From Holophagales bacterium (GTDB lineage Bacteria > Acidobacteriota > Thermoanaerobaculia > UBA5066): a DNA stretch of 64,000 nt. The translations under genes and the position numbers were made by a program. The notes beneath the pieces are model-generated. The model did not search any database and was not told the origin of the DNA. It was given only the letters and a program-made list of their open reading frames with translations. Location of the stretch: NCBI GenBank assembly GCA_016714815.1, contig JADKBZ010000008.1, positions 53,513 through 117,512 of the forward strand. The letters are read 5' to 3'. The first letter of the stretch is position 1, and each line of letters begins with the position of its first letter. Of the stretch, positions 4,928 to 31,934 are shown in pieces.

Positions 4928-4952
4928 CACGCAACGCCCCACAGGAGAGCTC

Positions 4953-5948: not shown

Positions 5949-6012
5949 GGAGGCCCATCCGCATGGAGACGCCGGGCCCCGGGGCGCCTCGCCCCGGGGC
6001 TCGACCCGAATC

Positions 6013-6942: not shown

Positions 6943-6944
6943 CC

Positions 6945-7838: not shown

Positions 7839-7842
7839 CGGC

Positions 7843-9401: not shown

Positions 9402-9501
9402 GCGACCGGCCACGCGGCGGGCCCCCCTCGCGGGGAGCTGAGCCCGGCCGGGCGGACACCCCGCGCGCGATCCCTATACTCCGCGCCACCGGCCCGACGG
9501 A

Positions 9502-10929
9502 ATGGTCTTCAGCACCTCCCTCTTCCTCCTCTTCTTCCTCCCCGCGTTCCTCGCGGGCTACCACCTCCTTCCCCGGCCCGCCCGGAACACCTTCGTCCTC
9601 CTGGCGAGCGCCCTCTTCTACGCCTGGGGCGCCCCGCGCTTCCTCTTCGTCGTCCTCGGCGTCACGTTCCTCGACTTCCACTTCGTGAAGAGGATGGCCG
9701 CGGCGAACGGCCCTGCGCGCAAGCGGGCCTGGCTCGTCGCCTCGCTCGCCATGAACCTCGGCCTCCTCGGCTATTTCAAGTACGCGGGGTTCTTCGTCGG
9801 GAACGTCAACGCGCTCCTCGGCGCCGCGGGGCTCGGCCCGCTTCCGTGGGCCGAGGTCTTCCTCCCGCTCGGAATCTCCTTCTACACGTTCGAGACGGTG
9901 ACCTACGTCGTCGACGTCTACCGGGGCGTCCACGCGCCGCTCGGCCGCTTCGCCGACTACCAGCTCTACATCCTCTTCTTCCCAAAGCTCCTCGCCGGGC
10001 CGATCGTCCGCTTCCACGAGATCGCCGACCAGATCGGCGACCGCTCGCGGTACGAGACGGCGGGACGCTTCCTCGGCGGCTTCGTCCGCTTCGTCCTCGG
10101 GCTCGCGAAGAAGGTGCTGATCGCCGACGTCCTCGGGGTGACGGTGAGGAAGGGCTTCGCGCTCGACGCGGCGGCCCTCGACGCGCCGGCCGCGTGGCTC
10201 CTCCTCGCCGCATTCCTGACACAGATCTACTTCGACTTCTCCGGCTACAGCGACATGGCCCTCGGCCTGGCGGCGATGGTCGGCTTCCGCCTGCCGGAGA
10301 ACTTCCGGGACCCGTTCGTCTCGACGAGCGTGACGGAGTTCTGGACCCGCTGGCACGTCACGCTCTCGGCGTGGATGCGCAGCTACCTCTACGTCCCGCT
10401 CGGCGGGAACCGGCTCGGAACCCGCCGGACGCTCGCGAACCTCTGGATCGTCTTCCTCGTCTCCGGCCTGTGGCACGGGGCGGCCTGGCACTACGTCCTC
10501 TGGGGGGCGTGGCACGGGCTCTTCATCGTGGCGGAGCGGACGGCCTTCGGCCGGCTCCTCGCGAAGGCCGGCCCGGTCGCGGGTCGGGCCTACGTCTTCC
10601 TCGCGGTCGTCGCCTCGATGGCGCTCTTCCGTCCCGCGGGCCTCCTCTCCGAGAACCTCCGGACCCTCGCCGCCCTCGCCGGGGGCGGCTCCGGCACCGC
10701 CGCGCTCCCGCTCGACCGGGAGTTCGCCGTCACGCTCGGCGTGGCCCTCGTCTTCACCTTTTTCGCGGCGCTCCCGGGCGCCGCCGCGATCCAGCGACTC
10801 GTCTTCGACGACGACCCGTCCCTGCCCCGCCAGCTGGCGCTCGTCCCGGCGGCGGGCCTTCTCCTCCTCCTCTGCCTTTCGATGGTCGCCTGGTCCCCGT
10901 TCAGCCCGTTCGTCTACTTCCGGTTCTGA
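9502..10929 (+). CDS. MBOAT-family membrane-bound O-acyltransferase (AlgI/DltB/PatA-like)
   Basis: 475 aa, polytopic. Conserved MBOAT His region WHGAAWHYVLWGAWHG. Confidence 0.85.
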   Translation: MVFSTSLFLLFFLPAFLAGYHLLPRPARNTFVLLASALFYAWGAPRFLFVVLGVTFLDFHFVKRMAAANGPARKRAWLVASLAMNLGLLGYFKYAGFFVGNVNALLGAAGLGPLPWAEVFLPLGISFYTFETVTYVVDVYRGVHAPLGRFADYQLYILFFPKLLAGPIVRFHEIADQIGDRSRYETAGRFLGGFVRFVLGLAKKVLIADVLGVTVRKGFALDAAALDAPAAWLLLAAFLTQIYFDFSGYSDMALGLAAMVGFRLPENFRDPFVSTSVTEFWTRWHVTLSAWMRSYLYVPLGGNRLGTRRTLANLWIVFLVSGLWHGAAWHYVLWGAWHGLFIVAERTAFGRLLAKAGPVAGRAYVFLAVVASMALFRPAGLLSENLRTLAALAGGGSGTAALPLDREFAVTLGVALVFTFFAALPGAAAIQRLVFDDDPSLPRQLALVPAAGLLLLLCLSMVAWSPFSPFVYFRF

Positions 10930-10931
10930 CG

Positions 10932-12089
10932 ATGAAGAACGCCCCGTCGCGAGCCCTCGCCGTCCTCGTCGTCGCCCTTCTCGGCGCACCGGCCGTCCTG
11001 CACTTCGTCCCGGGGATTCCCGAGTGGCCGCTCGCCGGCCGGTCGGCCGAGCTGGCGCCGTACCCCGCGTTCACGCTCGGCGGGTGGTTCTCGGGCTCCT
11101 TCCAGGAGGCGGCCCTCCGGCGCGCCAACCAGGCCTTCGCGTTCCGCACCTGGCTCGTGCGGCTGAACAACCAGATCGCGTTCCGCTTCTGGGGAAGGGC
11201 GAAGGCGAATGGCGTCCTGATCGGCCCCGGCCTCTTCCTGAACGACCGGCTCCACGTCGAGGCCTGGAACGGGACCGACTTCGTCGGAGAGGCGGCGATC
11301 CGCGCCCGGCTCGCCGCCCTGAGGCGCCTCGACGATGCCCTTTCCTCCCGCGGCGGCGGGGCGCTCCTCGTCGTCGTCCCGGGGAAGGCGACGACGTACC
11401 CCGAGCTCGTCCCCCGCGGCAGCAGGCCTCCGTTCGCGCCGCGCAACCGCGAGGTCTACGCCCGTCTCGCCCCCGGCGCCGAGGCCCCGTTCCTCGACCT
11501 GACGCCCCGGTTCCTCGAACACCGGCGCACCTCGCCGCATCCGCTCTTCTCGCCCTACGGAATCCACTGGACCGCGCTCGGCGCGGTTCTGGGGATGCAG
11601 GAGATCGTCGCCTCCCTCGAAGAGCGGACCGGGCGCGAGCTTCCTCGAATCGAGATTCTCGGAATCGAGGAGACGGACCGGATCCAGCCGGTCGATCGCG
11701 ACATCGGCGACGGGATGAACCTCCTCTTCCCTCTCCCGAAGGTGAAGCTCGCCTACCCGAGAATTCGCGTCGCCACCGAAGGGACGTGGCGGCCCCGGGC
11801 CCTCGTCGTCGCCGACAGCTACTTCTGGAACGTCTTCGACCTGCCCCTCGCCGGTCAGGTCTTCTCGTCGCTTCGGTTCTGGTTCTACCGCAACGAGCTC
11901 CACGAGCACGGGAAGCCGATGACGTTCCCAAAGGGAGATGCGGCCCTCGCGCGGCTCCTCTCCGAGGCGGACGTCGTCCTGATTCTCGCCTCCGATGCGA
12001 ACCTCCCCCGCGTCGGCTGGGGCTTCCTCGAGGACGTCGACCGCCTCCTGGCCGCAGGAGACGGGCGGCCGGCCGGACCGGTCCGCTAG
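10932..12089 (+). CDS. MBOAT partner protein, AlgX/AlgJ/DHHW-like (N-terminal membrane anchor, periplasmic SGNH-like domain); assignment tentative
   Basis: ATG 2 nt after the MBOAT stop. N-terminal hydrophobic anchor. A ...SPYGIHWTALGA... segment resembles the D-x-H-W region of AlgJ/DHHW proteins, but the Asp is not conserved. Gene order MBOAT then partner is typical of polymer O-acetylation systems. Confidence 0.45.
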   Translation: MKNAPSRALAVLVVALLGAPAVLHFVPGIPEWPLAGRSAELAPYPAFTLGGWFSGSFQEAALRRANQAFAFRTWLVRLNNQIAFRFWGRAKANGVLIGPGLFLNDRLHVEAWNGTDFVGEAAIRARLAALRRLDDALSSRGGGALLVVVPGKATTYPELVPRGSRPPFAPRNREVYARLAPGAEAPFLDLTPRFLEHRRTSPHPLFSPYGIHWTALGAVLGMQEIVASLEERTGRELPRIEILGIEETDRIQPVDRDIGDGMNLLFPLPKVKLAYPRIRVATEGTWRPRALVVADSYFWNVFDLPLAGQVFSSLRFWFYRNELHEHGKPMTFPKGDAALARLLSEADVVLILASDANLPRVGWGFLEDVDRLLAAGDGRPAGPVR

Positions 12090-12103
12090 ACTCCGCGTCC
12101 ACC

Positions 12104-13408
12104 ATGAGTCCAACGCTGCGCTTCACGCCGGCGCCCGAGTCGGGGGCCGCTCTCTCCGCCCTCGCCCGAGGCGTCCAGGGGTCCATCATCTTGAAGATCG
12201 GCGCCGAGATCCGCGCGATGAAGGCGCGCGGCGAGGACGTCTGCAACCTGACGATCGGGGACTTCGACCCGGCGCACTTCCCCATTCCCCGGGCCCTCGA
12301 CGAGGAGATCCGGACGGCCCTCTCCTCGGGGCAGACGAACTACCCCGCTTCCGATGGCATCCTCCCGCTGCGCGAGGCGATCTCCGCCTACTACCAACGC
12401 GAGCTCGGGCTCGACTACCCGGTCGACGGGATCCTCGTCGCGTCCGGCGCCCGGCCGCTCCTCTACGGGGCCTACAGGACGCTCCTCGATCCGGGCGACA
12501 TCGTCCTCTACCCGGTCCCGTCGTGGAACAACGAGTACTTCGTCCATCTCTCCGGAGCGCGGGCGGTGGAGATCCCGGTCCACGCCTCGTCGAACTTCTT
12601 CCCGACGGCCGAGCAGGTCGCCCCGCACCTCAAGAGCGCCCGCCTCCTCGTCCTGAACTCTCCGGCGAATCCGACCGGGACCGTCCTCGCCCCGGAAGAG
12701 CTCCGGAAGCTCGGCGAGCTCGTCCTCGCCGAGAACCGCCACCGGGCCTGGCGCGGCCGGCGCCCCCTCTACCTCCTCTACGACCAGGTCTACTGGACTC
12801 TCACCTTCGGAAGCGCCGTCCACGCGACGCCGGTCGGCCTCCTCCCCGACCTCGCTCCCTACACGATCCTCCTGGACGCCATCTCCAAGTCCTTCTGCGC
12901 CACGGGGCTGCGGGTCGGCTGGGGGCTGATGCCGCCCGTGATCCGGAGCCGGATGGCCGACATCCTCGGGCACGTCGGGGCCTGGGCCCCGAAGCCGGAA
13001 CAGGTCGCCACCGCCGCGTTCCTCGGCCGGGCGGACGAGATCGGAGCCTTCCAGGCCGGGATGAAGCAGGCGCTCAAGGAGCGCCTCGACCTCCTCCACG
13101 ACGGCTTCTCGGAGATGAGGGCGGCGGGACTGCCCGTCTACGTGGTCGAGCCGCAGGGGGCGATCTACCTCTCGGTGAAGATCGGCCTCGTCGGAAAGCA
13201 GCACGGCGGCACCCCGCTCCGGACGAACGAGGACGTCCGCGCCCTGCTTCTGCGGGAGGCGGGCTTCGGTGTCGTGCCGTTCCAGGCCTTCGGCCTGAAG
13301 GAGGAGAGCGGCTGGTTCCGGATGTCGGTCGGATCGGTCTCCATCGACGACATTCGCGCCGTCCTCCCGCGCGTTCGCGCCGTCATCGAAGAGGCCGCCC
13401 GGGCCTGA
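12104..13408 (+). CDS. Class I/II pyridoxal-phosphate aminotransferase (aspartate-aminotransferase-like)
   Basis: 434 aa. ...LNSPANPTG..., ...SKSFCATGLRVGWG... (PLP-Lys region). The rest of ORF 11024..13408 upstream is Arg-rich junk. Confidence 0.8.
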   Translation: MSPTLRFTPAPESGAALSALARGVQGSIILKIGAEIRAMKARGEDVCNLTIGDFDPAHFPIPRALDEEIRTALSSGQTNYPASDGILPLREAISAYYQRELGLDYPVDGILVASGARPLLYGAYRTLLDPGDIVLYPVPSWNNEYFVHLSGARAVEIPVHASSNFFPTAEQVAPHLKSARLLVLNSPANPTGTVLAPEELRKLGELVLAENRHRAWRGRRPLYLLYDQVYWTLTFGSAVHATPVGLLPDLAPYTILLDAISKSFCATGLRVGWGLMPPVIRSRMADILGHVGAWAPKPEQVATAAFLGRADEIGAFQAGMKQALKERLDLLHDGFSEMRAAGLPVYVVEPQGAIYLSVKIGLVGKQHGGTPLRTNEDVRALLLREAGFGVVPFQAFGLKEESGWFRMSVGSVSIDDIRAVLPRVRAVIEEAARA

Positions 13409-13426
13409 GCCCCGGGGCCCCTCACG

Positions 13427-14644
13427 TCACGCCTCCAGGAGCGCGTCCGCACGCAGCCTCTCGACCACCGCTTCGGCGACGAACTCCGGCTCGCCGCACT
13501 CCCCCGCGACCTCCTCGACCGTCCGCGTGCCGTCGAGGAGGAGGAGCACCGCGGTCGCCAGCGGATCGAGCGTGACGTTCCTGTGGCGGAACGACGTGAC
13601 GCGCGGCCCGTCCGCCGCCTGGAGGCGCGCAAGGGCGCTCGCGCGGGGCCTCGGGGAAAGCGGCGCCCCGCGGGAGAGAGGGACGCTCGCGAGCTCGAGG
13701 CCCTCCTCCGCCGCCGGGACCTCTCGCGGCCCCCGCTTCGCCCCCGCCCGTACGAACAGGCCCTGCCGCAGCGTCCTCTCCCGGAGGACGTCGAGAAGCT
13801 CTTCGCGCTCGACCTCTCCGCGAAGCCCTTCCAGGACGCGCCGCACCTCCGGCGACCACGTCTCTGGGGGCACGAAGGGCTCCTGGGCGTCGCAGAGGTA
13901 GTCGAGGCCGGCCGCCCCCGCCCGCGCCACGACGTCCCCCAGGGAAAAGGCCTCGTTCTCCTCTTCCAGGTAGTCGTGCAGGAGGTCCGCGTCGCTTTCG
14001 TCCGCGAGCTCCGCCCCCCTCTCGGCCAGGTAGCGGCCCCATGGGCCCGCCGGATCGACGACGCTGGCGGCGACGAGGGCGAGCCGTTCCCGGGCGAGCC
14101 GGGCCCGCTCCCCCGGCTCCCGGGCGCCCCCGGCGCCGGCCCGGAGGACGTCGCGGACGAGGTGGCGGAAGCGCCAGCCCGGGAGGGCGTTCCAGCTGAC
14201 GAAAGCGGCGCCCCTCTCCGAAAGCCGCTCGCCGCAGACCTCGAACACCCTCCGGCGAACGGGCTCCGGCACCCAGGAGAGGACCCCGTGGGCCAGGACG
14301 TAGTCGAACGCTCCCCAGCCCTCGTCCACGTCGCCCAGGTCGCCCGCCACCAGGGAGACGTTCCGAATCCCCAGCGCCTCGACGAGACGCCGACCCGCCC
14401 CGATCTGCCTCGCGGAAAAGTCGACGCCGACGAAACGGGCGGACGGCAGCCCGTACGCCATGCCGACGAGGTTGTCGCCACTCGCGCAGCCCAGCTCGAG
14501 GACGCGGGCGCCGGCGGCCGGCACCGGCTCGAACCCGTGCCGACGGACCGCCAGGGCGATCCGGTCGGGATGCGTGAAACGGTGGACGAGCCGCTCGTAG
14601 GGCATCGCCTCGTAGCTCTCCCGCGTCGCGTCGAGGTGCGTCAT
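13427..14644 (-). CDS. Class I SAM-dependent methyltransferase with C-terminal regulatory/uncharacterised domain
   Basis: 405 aa from ATG (revcomp at 14642-14644). Motif I VLELGCASGDN. The remainder of the 878-aa ORF 13427..16063 is antisense to aceA and rejected. Confidence 0.7.
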   Translation of the reverse strand: MTHLDATRESYEAMPYERLVHRFTHPDRIALAVRRHGFEPVPAAGARVLELGCASGDNLVGMAYGLPSARFVGVDFSARQIGAGRRLVEALGIRNVSLVAGDLGDVDEGWGAFDYVLAHGVLSWVPEPVRRRVFEVCGERLSERGAAFVSWNALPGWRFRHLVRDVLRAGAGGAREPGERARLARERLALVAASVVDPAGPWGRYLAERGAELADESDADLLHDYLEEENEAFSLGDVVARAGAAGLDYLCDAQEPFVPPETWSPEVRRVLEGLRGEVEREELLDVLRERTLRQGLFVRAGAKRGPREVPAAEEGLELASVPLSRGAPLSPRPRASALARLQAADGPRVTSFRHRNVTLDPLATAVLLLLDGTRTVEEVAGECGEPEFVAEAVVERLRADALLEA

Positions 14645-14752
14645 CCGGCCCCATTCTCGCCGCCCAGTCCGCAATCCGGACCCCGAACTTTGCGAAGTTG
14701 ACGGCGAAACCCCGGTTGTGCTGCATTGCAGAACTCGGATAAAGTCCACCCG

Positions 14753-16953: not shown

Positions 16954-17535
16954 ATGTCAGCCCTCCCGGACCTCGCCTCCCACTTCCGGGCTCTCGAGGC
17001 GATCCTGGAAGCCCAGCCGGAGGGCCAGAATGTCGAGATCGCCCGGGGCGTCTACGCGATGACTCCCCGGCCCCGGTTCCGGCACGCCGTCGTGCAGACG
17101 AACCTGTCATCCGCGCTGAAGGTACGGTTCGGTACAGGCACGCCGGCCACCCCTCCCGACTGGCTGTTTGCAATCGAACCCGAGATCCGCTCCGAGGAGG
17201 CCTTCTCGCGCCTCATCCCGGACGTGGCCGGCTGGCGCCGCTCGACGACGGGCTGGCCCGATGGGGACGAGAACCCCGTGACGCTCGCTCCGGACTGGGT
17301 GGCGGAAATCCTCTCGCCGGGAACCGAGGCGTACGACCGGGGCCCGAAGCGCGAAGCGTGGGGCCTCGTCGGAGCGGGATACCTCTGGATCGTCGATCCC
17401 GTCCGGCGCCTCGTCGAGACGTTCGTGAACGTCCGCGGGAAGATGATCGCCGGACCGGTCCTCCTCACGGACGACGTCCTCGCGGCACCGCCATTCGAGG
17501 GACTCTCCGAGCCGGTGGCCGGGATCTTCCTGTAG
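16954..17535 (+). CDS. Uma2-family (DUF820) putative restriction-endonuclease-like protein
   Basis: 193 aa. Characteristic ...APDWVAEILSPGT... (PD-(D/E)xK-like Uma2 motif). Confidence 0.8.
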   Translation: MSALPDLASHFRALEAILEAQPEGQNVEIARGVYAMTPRPRFRHAVVQTNLSSALKVRFGTGTPATPPDWLFAIEPEIRSEEAFSRLIPDVAGWRRSTTGWPDGDENPVTLAPDWVAEILSPGTEAYDRGPKREAWGLVGAGYLWIVDPVRRLVETFVNVRGKMIAGPVLLTDDVLAAPPFEGLSEPVAGIFL

Positions 17536-17584: not shown

Positions 17585-18043
17585 TCAATCCTCGAGCTGC
17601 CTTTCGTGGCCGTTCGGACAGGTGCCCCGGATCGAGTCGTGCCAGCCGTCGTCGTCGAAGACCGACCAGGTGCGCCAGTGGCCGCGGCAGAAGACGCTCG
17701 CGCACTGCGGGCAATAGAACGGCGCGTACTCCGGGTCGACGGACAGCAGGGCCGGGGCGTCGCCCCGACGAACCGAACCGGCGAGAGGTTCGAGCGCGAG
17801 GAGAGGCAGCCGGGTCGTGGAGTGCCCCAGGAAGCCCGAGACGACGAGGCTCGCGTGGTCTTCGGCGCGGCAGACCGTGACGGTCGCCGCGACCGCGCCG
17901 CACAGCGAGCAGGAGAACTCGTGAGTGGCGGCGACCAGCCCGGATGAGGAAGAGTCGGAGGACACGCGTGCGAATCGTAATCCGCCGACGGTCAGGCAAA
18001 GAGGGCGTGTCGGCCCGCGGCCGATCACGCCCGTCACTGGCAT
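17585..18043 (-). CDS. Small Cys-rich hypothetical protein (possible zinc ribbon), co-directional and immediately downstream of the 1432-aa membrane protein
   Basis: High GC3 on the minus strand for the C-terminal ~125 codons (..SCSLCG..C..YCPQCASVFCRGHW..CPNGHE). The N-terminal ~25 codons have low GC3, so the true start may be the GTG at 17965. The plus-strand ORF 17540..17947 is rejected. Confidence 0.4.
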   Translation of the reverse strand: MPVTGVIGRGPTRPLCLTVGGLRFARVSSDSSSSGLVAATHEFSCSLCGAVAATVTVCRAEDHASLVVSGFLGHSTTRLPLLALEPLAGSVRRGDAPALLSVDPEYAPFYCPQCASVFCRGHWRTWSVFDDDGWHDSIRGTCPNGHERQLED

Positions 18044-18053
18044 CGGGGGCTCG

Positions 18054-21000
18054 TCAGCGATCCGGGGGCTCCTCTGCCGGGGGGTCGAGCGGGGGCGGAG
18101 GAGGCGGAGGAGGGATTGAAGGAGGGATGGGCGGAGGCACGGCCCCCGGCGGCGCCATGTTCCGATCCACTTTCGGCTTCGGTTTCGAGAGAGGCTTCCA
18201 CCCCCCGCCCGCGACGTACGCCGACCACGCCCATTTCAGCCAGGCAATGAGTCGCGTCGCGAGCCAGAGCGACCAGAGAAGCATGACGACGCGATAGGTC
18301 CAGAGCGGGAGGCTGAAGACCCAGGCCCCGGGGAGCGCCCCGTCGAAGCGGTCGACGTACCACTTGAGGAGCGTGTCGCTGCTGCCGTTGCCGGCGACCT
18401 GCATGTCGGGCTTGATGAGCAGCCCCTCGTGGACGGCGCCGTAGAGGCCGGCGAGGAAGATCACGGTCCAGATGGCGAGGAGGAGCTGGAAGAAGTCGTG
18501 GAGGCCGGGGCTCTGCTCGGCCTTCTTCTCGCGCCACGCGAAGACGAGGAACCACCCCGCGACGGCGAGGACGGCGACGACGTGCAGCTGCGCGAGCCCG
18601 AAGCCGAGGAGGAGCCACTCCCACCCCTTGAGCGGGCTCGACGGGAGCGTGCCGAGGACGAGCGACAGGAAGGCGACGACGGCGAGAAGGCCCCAGAAGA
18701 GGACGGCCGGGCCCCAGCTCGGGCCTCCGGCGAAGAGGAGCCAGCGGTCGTTGGGAAGCTGGAGGGCGAGGTGCCCGTTCACCGCGGCCTGCCCCACGTG
18801 AACGCGCGGGAGCCGCTGGAGGAGCGAGATCCCCCCGGCCTGCCGCCACGTCACCTGGATCTTCTGGGCCCCCGGCCCCACGGAGAGGTGGAGCTCGTCG
18901 CCGTCGGGCCGGACGGGCCTCACGTCGTCGCCGACGCGCACCTCCTGCACCTCGGCCTTCGCGGGGAGCGTGATCGTCAGCGGCCCGGTGCGGCTCGCGC
19001 GGACGGAGAGCGCGAGGGTCGCGTCGAGGAGCCGGACGCCCGGGCTGACCAGGAGCGAGGCGTCGTCGATGGTGAGGCTCTGCCCCTGGGCCCCGGCCGG
19101 CCTCTGGAAGGCCAGGTCGAGCGACTCGCCAGGCCACGGGCGGTACTCCGAGGCGAGCGTTCCGTCCGCCTCGCGGGAGGTCGGCGCGAAGGCGCCCTTC
19201 GCCGAGCACTGCCAGACGGCGCCGCAGCGGAGGACCCAGACCTCCGACCAGGGCTTCCCCTCGGCGGCTTTCAGCGTGAGGGTCGCGCCGTCGGCGGGCT
19301 TCAGCGTCGACGTCCAGCGCGTCTCCTCCTCGTCGCGCCCGAACGTGAGGAGGACCTCGCCGTCCTTCACGGGATGGTCGGCGTCGGTGACGAGCATCCC
19401 CTTCAGGAGCGGGACCTTCACGACGAGCGGCGTCCCGGGCGGGCTGACGCGGCGGACGACCGTTTCGACCTTCCACGAAATGCCGATCTCGAAGATCCGC
19501 GTCACCTCGAGCCACGGCTCGTAGTGCCCTTCGGACCCCGCCTCCCCGCGGCTCCCCGCGTCGAGCTTGCGCGTGAGCTGGACGGAGCCGTCGGTCGTGC
19601 CGTCCTCGCGGACGCCGTCCACCTGCCATCCGTCGGCGACGGCACGTATCCGGCGCGGCCGGTCGACGAACTGGAGGGCGAGGCTGTCGCGCGGCGGAAG
19701 GGGCCCCGAGACGACGACCTGGTGCGTCCCGGCCGAAAGGCGCAGGTGGAGGAATCCGTCGTCGCGCCGCGCAAGGGCGAAGGCGGGCTGCCCGTCGACC
19801 GTGACGCTGCGCGGGACCCACGCCGACGCCGGGCCGGGAACGGGCCAGGCGGCTTCGGAGGCGGCGTGGACCTCGGCGACGATCTCGACGTCGGCGCCCT
19901 TCACGGCGAGGCGCACGTCGGGGGTCGCGATGCAGCTCGGGGCGCAGGCCGGCGGCCGGGTCAGGCGCGTCTTGAGCTCTTCGAGGATCCCGGCGTCGGG
20001 AAGCCCTTCGAGCGCCGCGGGCTTCGCAGCGTTCGCCGCGTTCGGCTCCGGAGCGGGCTCCTCCCCGGCGGCCGCGACGCGGGGGACGCCGAGGAGGAGG
20101 ACGAGGAGCGCGGCGGTGGCCACCGGCCTTCCGGGGCGGAACCCCTCGCCGACGCGAGGATTGGAGAGGAGGCGCAGGGCGAGGAGGCCGACGAGGAGGA
20201 CGCGGACGACGGCGAGGACGAGGTTGAGGAAGGGCGAGAGGAGGAAGAGGCGGATGCGGTGATCCTTCGCGACCGGGCCCGACCAGCGGAGGGGCTGGGC
20301 GTTCCAGCTCCAGGTCGGCACGCCGGAGCCGGTCTGGATGACGGCGTGCGGGTCCTGCCGGTAGGCCTCGTCCGACGACTTCGACGGGGGCACGACGCTC
20401 GCAGCCTGATTCTGGAGGTAGAGCTGCGCCGACTTTCGGAGAGGCGACGGCGTCGGCATCGCCCTGCCAAGGGCTTCCTGCGGTGCGGACGGGGGCGCCA
20501 TCGCGGGGGCCGCCTCGGCAAACGCATGCACTTCCTGGGACTTCGGGGCCTCTGCGACCGAGACCATTCCCCCGTCCGCCCAGACCGGCGGTCCGGCCTG
20601 CTCCGTCTGCGGGTAGAGCCCGTGCCTCACCTGCCCCACCGCGAACGGAAGCGCGACGACGACGAGGACGAGAGCGGAGACTCCCCACCAGGTGAGGACC
20701 ACCAGACGGAGCTTTCCCCTGGCGACCACGGTGAGGAGGGCCGCCGCGCCGAGGAGGCTGAGCCAGACGAGCGCGGGCGCCCCCGCCTCGCCGTGGCAGG
20801 CGACGAGGGTCGCCAGCGCAACCACGCCCCAGCGCCAGCCCGCGAGCTTCCACGCCGCGAGGGCGACGAGAAGGACGAGGAAGAAGCCGAAGAGGTCCCA
20901 CCTCCCGAGCCAGGCCTGCGGCGTGGAGTCGACCCCGCGGGCCCCCAGGAGACGCCAGCCCGGAGGCAGGTAGAGCGTGCCGGAGAGCCCCTGCACGTCG

Positions 21001-22352
21001 ATTCCCCAGCCGACCGCAGACAGCCGGCCGGGCCGGCCGGCCAGGCGCGACTCGGCGGTCATCCGAAGGGTCGTCCTTCGGAGCTCCACGCCCGAGAGCT
21101 TCTCCGCCGGGTCGACGGTGATGAGCTGGTCCTCGCCGTCGACGGTGGCCCGGCCGAGGCTCCCCGGGGAGAGGAGGTTGAGGCGCGAGGTGCGGCGGAG
21201 AGTTCCCGAGAAGCGATCCCGCACGGTGAAGCCCTTCCCGTCCAGGTCGAGCCAGAGCTCGCGCGAGACGTTGACCTGGTCGGGCGCGGCCTCCGCCTCG
21301 CCCCGGCGCGTCTCGACGAGATTCAGCTCCGTCTTCGAATCGAGCTGGAAAGCGGGGAGCTTCTGCCACTCGACGGGGAGGTCCGTTCTCGACGGGTCGA
21401 TCGGCGTCCCTCCCGAGAGCTCCACCTGGCGGAGCCGTTCGTTCGCCGCGAAGACCCAGATCTCCTGGCCGGGCCACGGCGCGATCACGGCGGCGTCGGG
21501 CCGGAAGGCCGAGGGCCGGCCCTCGACGCGGAAAAGGACCGATACGGTGAATCGCCCCGTTCGCACTTGGACGACGAGGCGGCCGTCGGCGTCGAGCCGC
21601 GCGGGGAGCTCGCCTCGCACGGCGACGGGGACCGTCCCCGGAAGTCGGGCACCCGAGAGCTTCACCTCGCGTGCCTTTCCCGAGACCTCGAGGAGGAGGC
21701 GCGTCTCGAGGAAGAGCGGGATGCCGTCCTCCAGGCGGCGGAAGACCTTCACCCGCAGCTCCTCGCCGACTCCGGCCCGTTCCCCTTCCTGCCGGAGGAG
21801 GAGGAGTCCGTTCTCCTCGCGTCGCGGGAACGCCACCGTCCGCCCGTCGAGAACGAGGTCGAGGAGGGCCGTTTCCGGGGGGACGACGAGCGAGTCGGGA
21901 AGAGTGCTCCAGGCGAATCGTCCCTCGACCGTGTGGCGTCCCGCGCCGAGGAGGACCGCGGGGCGGTCGTCCCTCGGGACGACGGCGGCAGCCTTCCCGT
22001 CGAGCCGCACGTCCTGCGGCCAGACTTTCGCGTCGCCCGGCAGCGGGAGGAAGAGGGGCCGTTCGGCCCACGCCTCCAGGACGAACGTCCCGCCGGAGGC
22101 TCCGAGGCGGAGCGTGATCCGTCCGGGCCACAGGCAGACGGCTTCGTCGCCGACGGCCGGGCAGGTGCGGTCGCGCGCCCCGTCGAGAGCCCAGGGCACC
22201 CAGCCCTTCAGCGCGGGCGGGAGGTCCTTCTCTGGAAACGGCTGCGCGGCCGCCCGGGGCGCGGCCGCGGCCAGGGCCGCCGCCAGGACCACCGCGAGAG
22301 ACGTGGAGACGAACGCGAAGTCCGTCGCGGGCCGGGATCCGCTGCGAGTCAT
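18054..22352 (-). CDS. Large (1432 aa) membrane protein with an internal tandem duplication ([~430-600 aa periplasmic domain + ~4-TM bundle] x2) and a Pro-rich C-terminal tail; no family assigned
   Basis: Signal peptide MTRSGSRPATDFAFVSTSLAVVLAAALAAAAPRAAA. Two hydrophobic clusters (about aa 470-570 and aa 1215-1390) with similar local sequence (..WKLAGWRWGVV.. and ..LKGWEWLLLG..). The two periplasmic halves are alignable (CP..C.WPGRITL../CAPSCIATPDVRLAV..; ..RPLFLPLPGDAKVWPQDVRLDGKAAAVVPRDDRPAVLLGAGRHTVEGRF.. / ..AAWPVPGPASAWVPRSVTVDGQPAFALARRDDGFLHLRLSAGTHQVVVSG..). The opposite-strand 1399-aa ORF is Arg/Glu-rich junk. Confidence 0.7.
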   Translation of the reverse strand: MTRSGSRPATDFAFVSTSLAVVLAAALAAAAPRAAAQPFPEKDLPPALKGWVPWALDGARDRTCPAVGDEAVCLWPGRITLRLGASGGTFVLEAWAERPLFLPLPGDAKVWPQDVRLDGKAAAVVPRDDRPAVLLGAGRHTVEGRFAWSTLPDSLVVPPETALLDLVLDGRTVAFPRREENGLLLLRQEGERAGVGEELRVKVFRRLEDGIPLFLETRLLLEVSGKAREVKLSGARLPGTVPVAVRGELPARLDADGRLVVQVRTGRFTVSVLFRVEGRPSAFRPDAAVIAPWPGQEIWVFAANERLRQVELSGGTPIDPSRTDLPVEWQKLPAFQLDSKTELNLVETRRGEAEAAPDQVNVSRELWLDLDGKGFTVRDRFSGTLRRTSRLNLLSPGSLGRATVDGEDQLITVDPAEKLSGVELRRTTLRMTAESRLAGRPGRLSAVGWGIDVQGLSGTLYLPPGWRLLGARGVDSTPQAWLGRWDLFGFFLVLLVALAAWKLAGWRWGVVALATLVACHGEAGAPALVWLSLLGAAALLTVVARGKLRLVVLTWWGVSALVLVVVALPFAVGQVRHGLYPQTEQAGPPVWADGGMVSVAEAPKSQEVHAFAEAAPAMAPPSAPQEALGRAMPTPSPLRKSAQLYLQNQAASVVPPSKSSDEAYRQDPHAVIQTGSGVPTWSWNAQPLRWSGPVAKDHRIRLFLLSPFLNLVLAVVRVLLVGLLALRLLSNPRVGEGFRPGRPVATAALLVLLLGVPRVAAAGEEPAPEPNAANAAKPAALEGLPDAGILEELKTRLTRPPACAPSCIATPDVRLAVKGADVEIVAEVHAASEAAWPVPGPASAWVPRSVTVDGQPAFALARRDDGFLHLRLSAGTHQVVVSGPLPPRDSLALQFVDRPRRIRAVADGWQVDGVREDGTTDGSVQLTRKLDAGSRGEAGSEGHYEPWLEVTRIFEIGISWKVETVVRRVSPPGTPLVVKVPLLKGMLVTDADHPVKDGEVLLTFGRDEEETRWTSTLKPADGATLTLKAAEGKPWSEVWVLRCGAVWQCSAKGAFAPTSREADGTLASEYRPWPGESLDLAFQRPAGAQGQSLTIDDASLLVSPGVRLLDATLALSVRASRTGPLTITLPAKAEVQEVRVGDDVRPVRPDGDELHLSVGPGAQKIQVTWRQAGGISLLQRLPRVHVGQAAVNGHLALQLPNDRWLLFAGGPSWGPAVLFWGLLAVVAFLSLVLGTLPSSPLKGWEWLLLGFGLAQLHVVAVLAVAGWFLVFAWREKKAEQSPGLHDFFQLLLAIWTVIFLAGLYGAVHEGLLIKPDMQVAGNGSSDTLLKWYVDRFDGALPGAWVFSLPLWTYRVVMLLWSLWLATRLIAWLKWAWSAYVAGGGWKPLSKPKPKVDRNMAPPGAVPPPIPPSIPPPPPPPPLDPPAEEPPDR

Positions 22353-22421
22353 CCTGTCCTCCGAAAACCGTGTAGCTCGGAAGAGGATAGACCGTCGGAC
22401 CCCGGGTCCGGTTCCCGCTTC

Positions 22422-23648
22422 CTACTCGTACCGCAGCGCCTCGATCGGATCGAGGCGGGAGGCCTTGAGCGCCGGGTAGAACCCGAACGTCACTCCGATG
22501 AGGGCCGAGAAGAGGAAGGCGACGGCGACCGCGTTCGCCTGCACGGCGACGGGCCAGCCGGCGAAGGTCGCGATCGCCCGCTGGATGCCGATCCCGAGGG
22601 CGATCCCGAGGCTGCCGCCGCTGATTGAGAGGACGACCGCCTCGACGAGGAATTGCGCCCGGATGTCGCCCCCCTTCGCGCCGACGGCGAGCCGGACCCC
22701 GATCTCCCGCGTCCGCTCGGTCACCGAGACGAGCATGATGTTCATGATCCCGATGCCGCCGACGAGGAGCGACACGCCCGCGATCGACCAGAGGAGCGTC
22801 GCCATCGTCCGGCTCTCGTCCGCGGCGCGCTGGAGCATCTCGGTCTGCGAGCGGATGGAGAAGTCGTCCTCCTGGCCGGCGCCCCTGTTGATCCGGTGCC
22901 GCTGGCGAAGGAGAGCCGTGATCTCTTCCTGGGCGGCGCCGACCTGGTCGTTCGTCGCCGCCGACGCCAGGATCGACCCGACGGCGGTCGTCCCCATGAT
23001 CTTCTTTCGCACCGTCTGGTAGGGGGCGACGACGAGGTCGTCCTGGTCGTGCCCCTGGGTGGATCCCCCCTTGGCTTCGAGGACGCCGATCACGCGAAAG
23101 GGAATGTTCTTCAGCCGCACGATGCGGCCGATCGGGTCCTCCCCGGGCATCAGTGTCGTCGCCACCGTCTGGCCGAGGACGCAGACCTTCGCCGCCGCGC
23201 GGTTGTCCTGCTCGGTGAAGAACTGCCCCGCGGCGAGGTTCCAGGACCGGATGAGCGGCCAGTCGACCTCTCCCCCCTGGACGGTCGTCGACCAGTTCTG
23301 GTTTCCGGCGACGACCTGGACGCCGGTCCGGATCGAGGCGGAGACGTAGGCGATGGAGGAGACCTCCCGCCGGATCGCCTCGACGTCCTCCTCGGACAGC
23401 TTCGAGCTCGATCCGGCCCCCCCGTGGGCCCCGCCGACGGAGTGCGAGCCCGGGTTGATCATCAGGAAGTTCGTCCCGAGGGACTGGAGCCGCTCGGCCC
23501 GCTGCATCCGGGCACCGTCCGCGATCCCGATCGTCGCGATGACGCACGCAACGCCGATGATCATCCCGAGCGCCGTCAGGAGCGACCGCATCGTGTTGCG
23601 CGAGAGCGCCCGGAAGGCGACCTTGAGCGTGTTTCCGGTTCTGGACAT
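22422..23648 (-). CDS. FtsX/MacB-type ABC transporter permease (no cognate ATPase gene adjacent)
   Basis: 408 aa from ATG (revcomp 23646-23648) preceded by GGGAGG. N-terminal TM, about 230-aa periplasmic domain, C-terminal 3-TM FtsX domain (..IGIMNIMLVSVTERTREIGVRLAVGA..). Confidence 0.8.
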   Translation of the reverse strand: MSRTGNTLKVAFRALSRNTMRSLLTALGMIIGVACVIATIGIADGARMQRAERLQSLGTNFLMINPGSHSVGGAHGGAGSSSKLSEEDVEAIRREVSSIAYVSASIRTGVQVVAGNQNWSTTVQGGEVDWPLIRSWNLAAGQFFTEQDNRAAAKVCVLGQTVATTLMPGEDPIGRIVRLKNIPFRVIGVLEAKGGSTQGHDQDDLVVAPYQTVRKKIMGTTAVGSILASAATNDQVGAAQEEITALLRQRHRINRGAGQEDDFSIRSQTEMLQRAADESRTMATLLWSIAGVSLLVGGIGIMNIMLVSVTERTREIGVRLAVGAKGGDIRAQFLVEAVVLSISGGSLGIALGIGIQRAIATFAGWPVAVQANAVAVAFLFSALIGVTFGFYPALKASRLDPIEALRYE

Positions 23649-28436: not shown

Positions 28437-31400
28437 CTACTTCGTCTTCACCGGGTCCGCGGGCCGCTTCGGGAGGGACCGCGGCTCCCTCTCGATCGCC
28501 TTCAGGACCTCCGCCACGCCCCGCTCGAGCTGCGGGTCGCGGCCGGCGGCCACGGAGGCCGGGTCGTTCTCCACCTCGATGTCCGGAGCGACGCCCTTCC
28601 CTTCGATGATGTAGCTGCCGTCGACGTCGTTCGTCGCCTGCTGCGGGACGAAGACCTGCCCGCCGTCCAGGAGCGGGCCGCGGCCGGAGATGCCGACGAC
28701 CCCGCCCCAGGTCCGCTTGCCGACGAGCGGGCCGAGCCCCGCCTTGCGGAAGCGCGCCGGGAAGATGTCGCCGTCCGACGCGGACGTCTCGTTGATGAGC
28801 GCCGCCAGGTGCCCGTGGAAGACGCTGCCGGGATAAGTTCCCGGCTCCTCGCTCGCCATCCCGAAGCGGGTCCCGAGGAGCTTCGAGTCGAGCCGCTCGA
28901 GGATCCACTGCGAGACGTTGCCGCCGCCGTTGGAGCGGACGTCGACGACGAGGCCTTCCTTGCGGATCTGCGGGTAGTACCACTTGAGGAACTCGTAGAT
29001 GCCGGGGGCGCCCATGTCGGGGATGTGCAGGTAGCCGACCCGGCCGCCCGACATCTTCGTCACCTTCTCGAGGTTGCCGAGGACCCAGTCGAGGTAGAGG
29101 AGGCTGGCCTCGCTCTCCACCGGCTCGTACGTCGCCTTGCGCGCCCCCTCGAAGGCCGGCTTCCCGTTGAGCGTGAGCGTGACGGGATGGGTCTTGTGCT
29201 GGAGGAGGCGGTAGGGATCGTCGTTCCCCGTCAGCTCCTCGCCGTCGATGGCGAGGACGTAATCGCCGACGCGGGCGTCGACGCCGACCGCCGTGAGCGG
29301 CGAGCGGTACTTCTCTTCCTCGTTGTGGCCGCGGAAGATCGCCGCGATCCGGTAGCGACCGGCCTTCGCGTCCAGCTCGAACCGCGCGCCGGGGAGGCCC
29401 ACCTTCGCCCGCGTCGGGCGCTCGATGTCCCCTTCCTCGATGTAGGCGTGGCCGACGTTCAGCTCGGACACCATCTCGCCGAGGACGTAGGTCAGGTCCG
29501 AGCGGTGGGAAACGTACGGCAGGAGCTGCCGGTACCTCGCGCCGATCGCCTTCCAGTCGTACCCGTGCATGTTGCGGACGTAGAAGAAGTCGCGGTAGCG
29601 GCGCCAGACCTCGTCGAAGATCGTCGCCCACTCTTCGGCCGGGACGCGGTCGACCACGAGCTCCTTCGTGGAGACGCTCTTGGGGTCCTTCGACTTCGGC
29701 TTGACGTCCCAGAGCTTGAAGCCCTTCTCCTTGCCGCCGCCCCGAACGAGGACCTTCTTCCCGTCGTCCGAGATCGCCCATCCGTCGACGTCGGCGACGA
29801 GCTCGCTCTCCTCGCGCTCCTTCAGGTCGTAGATCGCGAGGGAGGTCTTCCTGTCGCTGTCGCGCCCGTAGAACCGCGCCCCCTCCTTCGCGTAGAGGAG
29901 CGCCGACTTCGTCACGGCGAGACCGTCGAGGTTGTCGGCCTCCACCGGGACGCGGACGACGCGCGCGGCGAGGCCGTCCCACTCGATGACGACCGGCTTC
30001 GGCGCCTTCGCGGCGTCCTTCTTCCCGTCCCTGGCATCCTTCGAATCGCCCTTCTTCGCGTCCGCGGAGACCTTGTCGTCGTCGCCGTCCTTCTTGTCCG
30101 CGTCCTTCTTCCCGTCCTTCGCGTCGCCCGAGTTCACCTCGTCGCTCTCGGGCGCGAAGGGGCTCGCGACGTCCTTCCGGAGGGCGAGGGCGAAGATGCC
30201 GATCCGGCGATTCCCCGCATAGTTCCACTCGATGTCGGAGATCTGCGGCGCGAACTCGCGCTCCGCGAGGAAGTAGAGGAGCTTTCCCTCCGGGTCCCAC
30301 GCGGGACCGTACGAGGAGAACATCTCGCTCGTCACGCGCTTCACCTTGCCGTCCGCCACGCTCCAGACGTGGAGGACGTTCATCCCGGTGTGCTCGCCCA
30401 TCGAGAAGGCCAGGTGCGCGCCGTCGGGCGACCAGGCGTAGTCATCGATTCCGCCGAAGCGGTCGTCGGCGATCTCCACGACCTTCTTCCCGGCCACGGT
30501 CACGACGTAGAGCTTTCCGTCCTTGTCCGACAGGGCGAGGCGGGTGCCGTCGGGGGACCAGGCCGGCGCCGAGAGCATCGACCCGAAGGTCGTCGTCAGC
30601 TGTTCGGGCTTGCCGAGGCCGTCCTGCGAAACGAGCCAGAGCTGCTCTTCGCCCGTCCGGTCGGAGACATACGCGATCGTCTTCCCGTCGGGAGACCAGG
30701 CGGCGTGCTTGTCGTGGGCGCTGGAGGAGCGGGTCAGGTTGCGCGTCGCCCCCTTCTCGATCGGCGCCGTGAAGACGTCGCCGCGGGCGACGAAGAGGGC
30801 CCGCTCGCCCTTCGGCGAGAGGCCGAAGCTCTCGAGCCTCTTGTCGGCCGGGACCCGTGACGGCCGTGCGGCAAGGCCGTCGGACGGCACGGTGATCGCG
30901 AGCGCCGTGTCCGCCTTCGACTTCACGTCGAAGAGCCGGAGCTCGCCCCCGAGCTCGTAGACGACGCGGCCCGCGGAATCCGAGCTGGCCCACCTCACGT
31001 CCCACGTCGTCGACTGCGTCAGCTTCTCGATGTTCTCGCCGGAGGGGTCGGCGGAGTAGAGGTTCAGGGTGCCGTCGCGGTCGGAGACGAAGAAGATCTT
31101 CCCGCCGATCCACATCGGGTCGCGCTCGGTCCGCTTCGAGGGCGCGAGGACCTTCGAGGTTCCGGACGCGAGGTCGTAGACGAAGAGGTCCTGAGCCCAG
31201 CCCCCCTCGTAACGCTTCCAGGTGCGGAAGTCCCGGAAGAGCGGCGAGTAGACGAGCTTTGTCCCGTCGGGGCTGTAGTCGCCCGCGCCCGCCGTGTACA
31301 TCGGGAGCTTCGCGGGCAGGCCTCCCGCAACGGGAACGGTGTAGAGGGCCGACTCCACCTTCGCGCTCTCGGCGTCGCGCAGCGAGCGGATAAGGACCTT

Positions 31401-31811
31401 CGCCCCGTCGGGCGTCCAGCCGTAGACCTGGTTGTCCACGCCGCCGCGCGGCGGCAGCGGCCCGCGCGCCGGGTACCACGTGAGACGCTTCGGGACGCCC
31501 CCTTCGGACGGGACGACGTAGACCTGCTCGTCTCCCTCGTACTGGCCGGTGAAGGCGATCCACTTCCCGTCGGGGGAGAACTTCGGGAAGAGCTCCTGCC
31601 CCGGGTGCGCGGTGACCCGGGCGGCCAGGCCACCGCCCGTGGCGGCCGTCCAGATGTCGCCGCCGTAGCAGAACGCCACGCGGCCTCCGTGGACGTCGGG
31701 GTAGCGGAGAAGCTTCGTCTGGGCCGCAGCCGGGAAGGAGAGTAGAAAGGCCGCAGCCGCGGTGGCGAGGGGCGCCGAGAGGCGCGAGGAGCGCCGGGAG
31801 CGTGGATTCAT
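28437..31811 (-). CDS. Tricorn-protease-like S41 peptidase (N-terminal beta-propellers, PDZ, C-terminal S41 catalytic domain), paralog 1
   Basis: 1124 aa from ATG (revcomp 31809-31811) after GGAGG. Signal peptide MNPRSRRSSRLSAPLATAAAAFLLSFPAAAQT. Repeated ..SPDG(K/T).. propeller blades. C-terminal ..GRVGYLHIPDMG..VVDVRSNGGG.. (S41). A Lys/Asp-rich low-complexity insert is present. The upstream part of ORF 28437..33140 is rejected. Confidence 0.8.
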   Translation of the reverse strand: MNPRSRRSSRLSAPLATAAAAFLLSFPAAAQTKLLRYPDVHGGRVAFCYGGDIWTAATGGGLAARVTAHPGQELFPKFSPDGKWIAFTGQYEGDEQVYVVPSEGGVPKRLTWYPARGPLPPRGGVDNQVYGWTPDGAKVLIRSLRDAESAKVESALYTVPVAGGLPAKLPMYTAGAGDYSPDGTKLVYSPLFRDFRTWKRYEGGWAQDLFVYDLASGTSKVLAPSKRTERDPMWIGGKIFFVSDRDGTLNLYSADPSGENIEKLTQSTTWDVRWASSDSAGRVVYELGGELRLFDVKSKADTALAITVPSDGLAARPSRVPADKRLESFGLSPKGERALFVARGDVFTAPIEKGATRNLTRSSSAHDKHAAWSPDGKTIAYVSDRTGEEQLWLVSQDGLGKPEQLTTTFGSMLSAPAWSPDGTRLALSDKDGKLYVVTVAGKKVVEIADDRFGGIDDYAWSPDGAHLAFSMGEHTGMNVLHVWSVADGKVKRVTSEMFSSYGPAWDPEGKLLYFLAEREFAPQISDIEWNYAGNRRIGIFALALRKDVASPFAPESDEVNSGDAKDGKKDADKKDGDDDKVSADAKKGDSKDARDGKKDAAKAPKPVVIEWDGLAARVVRVPVEADNLDGLAVTKSALLYAKEGARFYGRDSDRKTSLAIYDLKEREESELVADVDGWAISDDGKKVLVRGGGKEKGFKLWDVKPKSKDPKSVSTKELVVDRVPAEEWATIFDEVWRRYRDFFYVRNMHGYDWKAIGARYRQLLPYVSHRSDLTYVLGEMVSELNVGHAYIEEGDIERPTRAKVGLPGARFELDAKAGRYRIAAIFRGHNEEEKYRSPLTAVGVDARVGDYVLAIDGEELTGNDDPYRLLQHKTHPVTLTLNGKPAFEGARKATYEPVESEASLLYLDWVLGNLEKVTKMSGGRVGYLHIPDMGAPGIYEFLKWYYPQIRKEGLVVDVRSNGGGNVSQWILERLDSKLLGTRFGMASEEPGTYPGSVFHGHLAALINETSASDGDIFPARFRKAGLGPLVGKRTWGGVVGISGRGPLLDGGQVFVPQQATNDVDGSYIIEGKGVAPDIEVENDPASVAAGRDPQLERGVAEVLKAIEREPRSLPKRPADPVKTK

Positions 31812-31934
31812 CGGATCCTCCGCCGGGGATGGTAACGCCCGCCCGGCGGACCGCCGTGGCCCGGAGCGCCTGCCCCGGGGACGGGTCTCGCGCGGACGCG
31901 GCGCCCGGAGGAAGATGGGTCCTCGAGGCCGCTC

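Follow-up and report, generated by a model that had tools for sequence, protein, structure and literature searches.

An undescribed family of internally duplicated, partner-less membrane proteins of diderm bacteria, encoded beside a permease gene and a zinc-finger gene in a Holophagales genome

A 64-kb stretch of a metagenome-assembled Holophagales (Acidobacteriota) genome (64,000 nt of contig JADKBZ010000008.1, here called the window) carries three closely spaced minus-strand genes, encoding a MacB/FtsX-type permease, a large membrane protein of 1432 amino acids (aa) and a small Cys-rich protein. Sequence comparison shows that the large protein stands alone and belongs to a large, widespread and undescribed family in diderm bacteria, and profile comparisons of its two halves indicate that this family arose by ancient tandem duplication. 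The trio itself is a recent, lineage-specific juxtaposition and not a conserved functional system. We are highly confident of this structural and genomic description, and the interest of the locus is in a family conserved at full length across at least five phyla, not in a three-gene "system."

As the window has a G+C content of ~71%, long spurious open reading frames (ORFs) are plentiful in it, and some of them overlap the large gene (for example, 18034-23547 on the minus strand and 18429-22628 on the plus strand). The large ORF or its duplication might on this ground be taken for an artefact, either a spurious high-GC frame or an assembly duplication. Third-position G+C (GC3) argues otherwise. 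It is 0.85 for ORF 17585-18043, 0.92 for the large gene (ORF 18054-22352) and 0.94-0.95 for the permease ORF 22422-23648/23714, all on the minus strand, which is the coding signature typical of a 71% GC genome, and the alternative ORFs that overlap the three genes show the wrong periodicity. This frame signature selects 18054-22352; the two halves of its product are only ~23% identical; and the identical two-module layout recurs in thousands of independent assemblies, including complete Methylomonas genomes. The frame signal, the low identity of the halves and the thousands of independent homologues refute both forms of artefact, to which we give practically no chance. All three minus-strand ORFs are genuine genes, as the first-pass annotation of this DNA had them, and the spacing that it reported holds as well, with 69 nt between the permease and large genes and 10 nt (from ATG 18043) or 88 nt (from GTG 17965) between the large and small genes. 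The start of the large gene, ATG 22352, is preceded by a Shine-Dalgarno-type GGAGGA.

To establish how widely the large protein is distributed, homologues were collected by several routes. A word-index search returns 352 of them; among the best 120, all are 1,344-1,447 aa long apart from one partial sequence, every named one is a "hypothetical protein," and none has a Pfam domain. An exhaustive phmmer search with the C-terminal half of the protein (module 2) finds ~2,400 cluster representatives (50% identity), 1,379 of them at E<=1e-30, and often reports a second matched stretch, which is module 1. The genome scan places the protein in 234 GTDB species from five phyla, namely Acidobacteriota (Vicinamibacteria and Holophagales), Myxococcota, Bdellovibrionota, Desulfobacterota and Gammaproteobacteria, and the family includes complete or isolate genomes of cultured Methylomonas. 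Well-aligned full-length members have 1,350-1,450 aa. Longer members contain no informative fused domains, their extensions being differing low-complexity C-terminal tails of up to ~270 aa without a Pfam domain. One candidate for a natural single-module (split) gene was followed to its contig (P0160, locus L093, 137-4421) and proved to be a scaffold-gap artefact: the 648-aa "single-module" member has its module 1 upstream, in another frame, beyond a 100-N scaffold gap. The same check of the contig is needed before a short family member from a metagenome-derived protein set is taken for a natural split gene.

The large protein had at first been assigned to no family, and broader searches bear this out. 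Neither the window protein, nor profiles built from 109 or 33 members, nor any of 33 diverse members searched individually has a sequence match in Pfam, NCBIfam, PADLOC or the PDB, and a literature search returned nothing relevant on the Methylomonas family accessions or on ribophorin-like bacterial proteins. By sequence the protein appears to stand outside every described family, as does its membrane domain by predicted structure, and we regard it as a new family for which function can at present only be inferred.

The duplication is barely visible in single sequences, where BLAST aligns the two halves at 34% identity over 73 aa (E 0.007). Profile-profile alignment with hhalign of module 1 (aa ~35-590) to module 2 (aa ~760-1385) covers 495 columns at ~23% identity, with a probability of 97.1% in local mode (E 6e-11) and 98.6% in global mode (E 9e-15); the internal duplication proposed from the window sequence is thereby confirmed. 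Each module contains an extracytoplasmic domain of two lobes, A and B. Lobes A1 and A2 match each other with a probability of 97.9% (E 4e-13), the match of B1 to B2 is weak, and a probability of ~90% links the A lobes to part of B2 as well, a hint of an older repeat.

AlphaFold2 (AF2) models were made of aa 1-740 and aa 680-1432, with a mean predicted local distance difference test score (pLDDT) of 83.8 and 85.6, respectively, and most residues above 90. In both models the module consists of an all-beta ectodomain of ~430 aa, four helices, a beta-hairpin joined to a conserved Q-x-G-x-G loop, and a long fifth helix. The initial description of a signal peptide followed by two extracytoplasmic modules with helical membrane bundles is therefore sound in outline, but each module has five transmembrane (TM) helices rather than about four. 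Similarly, the poly-Pro tail is present in the window protein but is not conserved in the family. Ectodomain 1 is built of two beta-sandwich lobes, A1 at about aa 62-285 and B1 at about aa 292-480, and contains a conserved disulfide-like pair, C64/C73; ectodomain 2 has a conserved pair of its own, C803/C807. TM1-TM4 correspond to AF2 helices at 487-504, 506-519, 527-542 and 547-579. Past the disordered linker, residues Q673, T674 and G675 are invariant and lead into modelled strands at 684-689 and 699-705 and a helix at 707-730, with pLDDT 93-97. At the N-terminus, A36, Q37 and P38 are nearly invariant across the family, and the signal peptide is probably cleaved after RAAA, before the conserved QP.

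Conservation spans the whole large protein, with 137 positions at least 95% identical though pairwise identity is 35-60%. It peaks at the ectodomain-membrane junctions, aa 461-480 and 1201-1220. A highly conserved juxtamembrane motif, LPPGW..L.A.GVD..P..W, lies ahead of TM1, and the R-W-L-L...GP.WGPAVLFW block before TM7 is the most conserved stretch of the protein (0.76 for aa 1201-1220). The linker (aa 581-660), the spacer (aa 761-780) and the C-terminal tail are poorly conserved. Charge bias was evaluated over 63 aligned sequences, the window protein and 62 diverse members. Net charge is positive at the N-terminus (+2.3), in the loop between TM5 and TM6 (+2.9) and in the C-tail (+3.0), and it is negative in the ectodomains and the proposed periplasmic loops. 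The bias therefore supports a topology in which 12 TM helices leave the two termini inside and place the two ectodomains in the periplasm, a location that the two Cys pairs fit.

The family has no invariant His, and no invariant Cys beyond the two disulfide-like pairs. No Asp, Glu or Lys is found inside the TM helices among invariant or >=90% conserved positions; R1274 sits at the cytoplasmic boundary, and the invariant D475 at the membrane surface. No candidate for a catalytic or metal site was found in the large protein, nor was a cytoplasmic domain or a partner gene that is conserved.

Between the modules, aa 731-763 resemble a signal peptide, with a K/R-rich n-region, an Ala/Leu h-region (TM6) and a c-region, PRVAAA followed by GEE, that presents a candidate signal-peptidase I site at the junction of the two. 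The sequence of this segment is unconserved (0.13-0.35), yet the n/h/AxA pattern and an acidic or polar spacer are seen in every phylum. A -3/-1 site at the opening of module 2 is found in 55 of the 62 diverse members, the -1 residue being Ala or Ser in 54; by comparison, the genuine N-terminal signal peptide scores 45/62 and other in-to-out helices 4-26/62. TM6 would run in-to-out and leave the AxA site periplasmic, which is the orientation that signal peptidase I needs. We suggest from this pattern that the precursor may be a substrate of signal peptidase I, whose cut would release module 2 and give two homologous membrane chains.

Whether the trio is a conserved unit can be judged from its relatives. 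The first-pass annotation had taken the three genes as one uncharacterised envelope system and had named co-conservation beforehand as a test. We compared the contexts of nine proteins (homologues of the large or the small protein) and of 80 loci of GTDB species representatives; neighbour counts by tblastn refer to the 88 large-gene loci collected up to that search, with a reach of 10 kb. The order permease-large-small is kept in L005 (large protein 92% identical) and in L091 and L092 (86%), and the trio is thus kept only among relatives whose large protein is at least 86% identical. At 60% (L006/L007), 55% (L008) and 52% identity (L001), a divergent acyl-CoA dehydrogenase gene stands upstream and there is no small gene. 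A permease lies within 10 kb of the large gene in 4/88 loci, all four from Acidobacteriota, and is co-oriented in one of them (L005), divergent in L001 and L009 and fragmentary in L023; the small protein is encoded near the large gene in 1/88. All-versus-all clustering of 3,447 flanking ORFs reveals no neighbour family that is kept across phyla. Histidine kinases, ABC ATPases and Ser/Thr kinases of generic type make up the largest clusters, the only ones that recur, with no fixed position or strand, and the Desulfobacteraceae loci show synteny with RecN and an FAH-family hydrolase. Distant genes of DUF8328, the family of the small protein, have no large-protein neighbour (L089 and L090). The 88 contexts and the clustering rule out a conserved three-gene operon, and the unit reading fails because the co-conservation is lacking.

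There is nevertheless a case for one envelope machine composed of the permease, the large protein and the Cys-rich protein, in which an ATPase encoded at a distance would energise the permease, the permease would exert a mechanical action on the large protein or together with it, and the small zinc-finger protein would be a regulator or assembly factor. The genes share a strand, lie only 69 nt and then 88 or 10 nt apart, and have no terminator-like site between them; their order is retained in the three relatives named above; and in L001 a complete adaptor-ATPase-permease-permease operon adjoins the large gene, though divergently. Against such a machine stand the counts of 4/88 for a permease, co-oriented in L005 only, and 1/88 for the small protein, the relatives at 52-60% identity that have neither permease nor small gene at the trio positions, the lack of any neighbour kept across phyla, the DUF8328 genes found elsewhere without a large protein, and the cytoplasmic nature of the small protein. 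FtsX-type orphan permeases (the ADOP family) are very numerous in Acidobacteriota, so that chance adjacency of the permease and large genes is plausible. We consider the one-machine explanation improbable and keep to a recent juxtaposition. Because the 69- and 88-nt gaps have no detected terminator, co-transcription is possible in the Holophagales lineage; the scan for sigma-70 promoters and terminators, which detected no terminator-like site between the three genes, was itself uninformative.

As to function, we tentatively propose, as a possibility rather than an expectation, that the large protein is a non-enzymatic, self-contained, periplasm-facing platform for binding or scaffolding. It would act through the surface at which ectodomains, Q-x-G-x-G hairpins and outer leaflet come together, which is where conservation peaks. 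By analogy with OST1, a subunit of the eukaryotic oligosaccharyltransferase that is itself non-catalytic, the platform would hold a periplasmic polymer or a lipid-linked envelope intermediate. Signal peptidase I would cut the precursor, and the two homologous chains would stay together as a pseudo-symmetric pair. Taken as a whole, the statement that this is a stand-alone, duplicated 12-TM family with a platform role and recently juxtaposed neighbours is one towards which we lean slightly. A bolder version, which we regard as a long shot, holds that the precursor is cut into paralogous chains of six and five TM helices that form a pseudo-symmetric heterodimer, a functional counterpart and possibly a distant relative of OST1, whose four OST1/ribophorin-like lobes would hold a nascent polymer or polyprenyl-linked intermediate at the outer leaflet.

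Several points weigh against the platform reading and what goes with it. The platform mechanism rests on negative evidence, namely the lack of features for catalysis or energy coupling, and on fold resemblance at the level of domains, with template-modelling scores (TM-scores) of 0.14-0.24. The TM helices are as conserved as the ectodomains, so that the pattern could equally fit a transporter or channel. The internal cleavage derives from a crude -3/-1 rule applied to Ala-rich sequence without a trained predictor, and the AF2 models are of the two halves apart, which places the packing of the halves outside them. The membrane domain may match some predicted structure in the AlphaFold database. 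Lastly, given the short gaps without a terminator, a lineage-specific functional link between the large protein and the permease may exist.

Two other functions were considered. One is an RND-analogous secondary transporter or exporter that would move lipid or polymer from the inner membrane into the periplasm. It agrees with the 1+5 / 1+5 arrangement of TM helices, in which helix one (the signal peptide) and helix seven (TM6) are each followed by a large loop; with an internal duplication as in RND proteins; with the good conservation of TM segments and juxtamembrane blocks; and with lipid or envelope genes as neighbours in several lineages, namely squalene synthase (L081 and L059), PagL with CN_hydrolase (L004 and L036) and, in Methylomonas, PAP2 with DgkA. 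The ectodomains are all-beta in the large protein, no intramembrane charged residues are conserved for a proton relay, and adaptor and outer-membrane partner genes are absent around the large-protein genes, all of which sets it apart from RND; we think this function unlikely. The other is an enzyme of the membrane that works on polyprenyl-phosphate-linked substrates, for instance a GT-C-like glycosyltransferase, a ligase or a polymerase, or else a non-catalytic partner dedicated to such an enzyme, as a bacterial counterpart of OST1 beside STT3. OST1/ribophorin I is the best structural match of the ectodomains, three unrelated lineages have GT-C genes within 10 kb (PMT_2 in L002 and L071; GT87 in L006, L008 and L076), PAP2 and DgkA are directly upstream in Methylomonas, and D475 is invariant at the membrane surface. 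The residue survey described above offers such an enzyme no catalytic site, and the GT-C genes vary in position and strand, so they do not amount to a conserved partner; we judge this function very unlikely. A shared lipid or GT-C neighbourhood theme was examined and set aside, the PAP2/DgkA, squalene synthase, PagL, PMT_2 and GT87 neighbours each being lineage-specific and a weak lead.

That a membrane protein of 150 kDa is so strongly conserved, partner-less and apparently non-enzymatic implies that the diderm cell envelope has a function not yet recognised. Conserved families that lack a characterised member are in themselves no rarity, and the function of this one is what we infer; what is notable is the combination of OST1/ribophorin-type ectodomains with an RND-like plan that lacks RND ancestry. 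If true, the internal cleavage would give two membrane subunits from one gene, which is rare in bacteria. Methylomonas strains, which are cultured and genetically tractable, have members of the family and offer a direct way of testing it.

The neighbours of family genes in other genomes are often connected with lipids or the envelope, though none is shared between lineages. In Methylomonas (L073 and L087, 8641-9666, plus strand), a PAP2 phosphatase gene with a DgkA kinase gene is directly upstream. A gammaproteobacterial metagenome-assembled genome (MAG; L081, 8718-9836, plus strand) has a squalene/phytoene synthase gene 108 nt upstream of the family gene. PMT_2 (GT-C) glycosyltransferases occur in two unrelated lineages (L071, 8274-10016, and L002, 1545-3143, both minus strand), and PagL with CN_hydrolase in Acidobacteriota (L004, 13162-14649, minus strand). 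In a Vicinamibacteria genome (L002/L003, 12116-13576, plus strand), genes for DsbD_N-domain and Redoxin/AhpC-TSA proteins lie directly 3' of the large gene on the same strand; they could relate to the conserved periplasmic Cys pairs, and this pairing is seen in no other locus.

The permease is an ordinary MacB/FtsX-type protein, already known in kind. Its MacB_PCD domain (PF12704, E 7e-49) is covered from end to end of the model (1-207/207) and lies between TM1 and TM2, and the C-terminal FtsX three-helix domain (PF02687) matches at E 2.8e-19. In NCBIfam the MacB model matches at E 3e-79 by its permease part alone (model 250-646) and the ADOP model at E 5e-36, both below the curated cut-off. 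The best start is ATG 23648, with GGAGG ahead of it. The permease had been noted to have no ATPase partner nearby; this holds for the entire window, in which tblastn with the ATPase and adaptor of L001 as queries finds no MacB-type ATPase or adaptor. The ATPase query matched only two ABC ATPases, at 7.8-9.4 kb of the window. These were rejected as partners, being part of a Pst phosphate-transport cluster, and the second has a typical PstB sequence. The orphan permease would have to use an ATPase encoded elsewhere. The sole PADLOC match, to the generic LolE-like TM part of the permease, does not make the locus an anti-phage defence system.

The Pst cluster itself (3821-9401, plus strand) comprises PstS-like, permease and PhoU genes together with the ABC ATPase ORFs 7843-8631 and about 8649-9401, and includes a gene (3821-4927) for a 368-aa fusion of PhoU domains to a low-molecular-weight phosphotyrosine phosphatase/ArsC-like domain. 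In L001, a Thermoanaerobaculia MAG, genes for a MacA-like adaptor, an ABC ATPase and two FtsX permeases form a complete operon (3598-7831, minus strand), 170 nt from the divergent large-protein homologue (8001-12308, plus strand); this is the only other locus with an adjoining full MacB-type system.

The small protein belongs to DUF8328 (PF27007). A word-index search with it returns ten clusters only, and 10/10 carry a precomputed PF27007 assignment, including the 99%-identical P0140. Its identity to the DUF8328 protein of L005, which has 126 aa, is 79%, with the similarity beginning exactly at GTG 17965, and the alignment of ten shows the N-terminal extension of the longer reading in no homologue. 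The start is therefore most likely GTG 17965, giving 126 aa as in all homologues. Start calls for this gene differ over 17966-18043: NCBI has 126 aa, and the 99%-identical cluster representative (JGI, Logan and others) has 152 aa, a form that carries the JGI name "DUF1610 family Zn-ribbon." Invariant among the homologues (152-aa numbering) are C45, C48, C111, C114, C119, H122, C142 and H146, as well as a C-terminal G-x-CP-x-GH...D core within the highly conserved FDDDGWHDSIRGTCPNGHER.LED tail; C16 and C58 are not conserved. The earlier count of at least eight Cys is correct for the 152-aa reading, which has eight, but the favoured 126-aa reading has seven. A match to zf-AN1, limited to aa 106-122, stays below threshold (E 0.011; 16.2 bits, where the cut-off is 27.9). 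The residue pattern suggests a two-zinc (C6H2), AN1-like cytoplasmic finger. Signal peptides and TM segments are missing from the small protein and its homologues alike, which makes it a protein of the cytoplasm rather than of the envelope. A literature search found nothing relevant on DUF8328.

The coordinates of the three genes and of the parts of their products are collected in Table 1. The genes that flank the trio are on the opposite strand and unrelated to it: a dienelactone hydrolase and an S46 peptidase upstream, and a Uma2 nuclease and isocitrate lyase downstream. The Uma2-family gene, a putative restriction endonuclease (16954-17535, plus strand; PF05685, E 1e-20), converges on the small zinc-finger gene, whose stop codon lies 49 nt away. 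Elsewhere in the window, 28437-33140 (minus strand) encodes a 1567-aa tricorn-like protease with PD40 beta-propeller repeats and Tricorn C1, PDZ and S41 peptidase domains, and 10930-14725 shows strong third-position G+C periodicity with long overlapping ORFs on both strands, a region in which a simple GC3-based filter called no gene. For regulatory RNA, there is no Rfam match anywhere in the window.

Table 1. Coordinates, within the window, of the three genes and of the features of their products
Feature	Coordinates	Strand	Basis
MacB/FtsX-type ABC permease, 408 aa	22422..23648	-	Pfam MacB_PCD and FtsX; GenBank MBK8596569.1 "ABC transporter permease"
MacB_PCD periplasmic domain of the permease	about 22911-23585	-	
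FtsX 3-TM domain of the permease	about 22446-22787	-	
Internally duplicated inner-membrane protein, 1432 aa	18054..22352	-	GC3 0.92; homologues; GenBank MBK8596568.1 "hypothetical protein"
Predicted N-terminal Sec-type signal peptide, aa 1-36	22245..22352	-	Hydropathy; n/h/c pattern across the family
Predicted periplasmic ectodomain 1, all-beta, aa 37-484	20901..22244	-	
TM1-TM4 of module 1, aa 485-579	20616..20900	-	AF2 helices, conservation profile, charge bias
Disordered Pro/Ala-rich periplasmic linker, aa 580-665	20358..20615	-	pLDDT <50 for 591-632; conservation 0.16-0.27
QDP..V.QTGPG.P.W.W motif, beta-hairpin and TM5 of module 1, aa 666-730	20163..20357	-	Conservation, AF2
Internal signal-peptide-like segment, aa 731-763	20064..20162	-	Pattern across the family
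Variable spacer and predicted periplasmic ectodomain 2, homologous to ectodomain 1, aa 764-1215	18708..20063	-	
Module 2 membrane domain, aa 1216-1380: TM7-TM10, PDMQVAG.GS motif, beta-hairpin, TM11	18213..18707	-	AF2, charge bias
Cytoplasmic C-terminal tail, basic then poly-Pro, disordered, aa 1381-1432	18057..18212	-	pLDDT about 45-55; occupancy 0.3-0.7
Small zinc-finger protein, DUF8328 (PF27007), 126 aa	17585..17965, from GTG	-	Homology; GenBank MBK8596567.1 "hypothetical protein," 126 aa
Alternative 152-aa reading of the small protein	start ATG 18043	-	

Among known systems, the best structural match of the ectodomains is OST1/ribophorin I, with the other fold matches being M1/M61 aminopeptidases, lpg2210 (4g2a) and ITIH1 (6fpy); the TM-scores of these matches are low (0.14-0.24) and their root-mean-square deviations high. 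With OST1/ribophorin I the large protein shares, at the level of fold, a tandem beta-sandwich extracytoplasmic domain followed by a TM helix. The likeness is not seen in sequence, as Ribophorin_I (PF04597) has no hmmscan match at E<=1 in 33 members. Unlike OST1, the large protein contains the unit twice, with four additional TM helices fused to each copy, and it is bacterial and periplasmic rather than in the lumen of the endoplasmic reticulum. It also has no conserved GT-C partner; GT-C genes (PMT_2, GT87) are found within 10 kb in three lineages only. In the M1/M61 aminopeptidases it is the N-terminal beta-sandwich that is matched (tricorn-interacting factor F3, 1z1w; ERAP1, 3qnf; LTA4H, 5fwq), at 5-13% sequence identity. 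The resemblance is to this non-catalytic N-domain alone, whereas the large protein lacks a thermolysin-like domain, HEXXH, a Peptidase_M1 Pfam match and an invariant His.

With RND proteins of the AcrB, MmpL and SecDF type the likeness is one of plan only: both have ~12 TM helices and an internal duplication of ancient date, and in each half the opening helix leads into a large periplasmic domain. The large protein has no sequence or structural match to the RND superfamily (ACR_tran, MMPL, SecD_SecF and Patched domains). A similarly general plan of one TM helix, an ectodomain and a TM bundle is shared with MacB, FtsX and ADOP proteins, the last of which are duplicated, orphan and abundant in Acidobacteriota. 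However, neither FtsX nor MacB_PCD matches the window protein or 33 diverse members at E<=1, and a cryptic kinship was rejected after hhalign against the local permeases gave a probability of 0.1-0.4%.

For the proposed cleavage, the closest parallel is FbcH, the cytochrome b/c1 precursor of Bradyrhizobium, in which one gene with an internal signal sequence yields two membrane subunits by a documented cleavage. FbcH is unrelated to the large protein in sequence and function, and the cleavage documented there is one that we only propose here. The two nonetheless have in common that a bacterial polytopic precursor carries an internal signal-peptide-like segment ahead of a periplasmic domain, which is the role that TM6 would play in the large protein.

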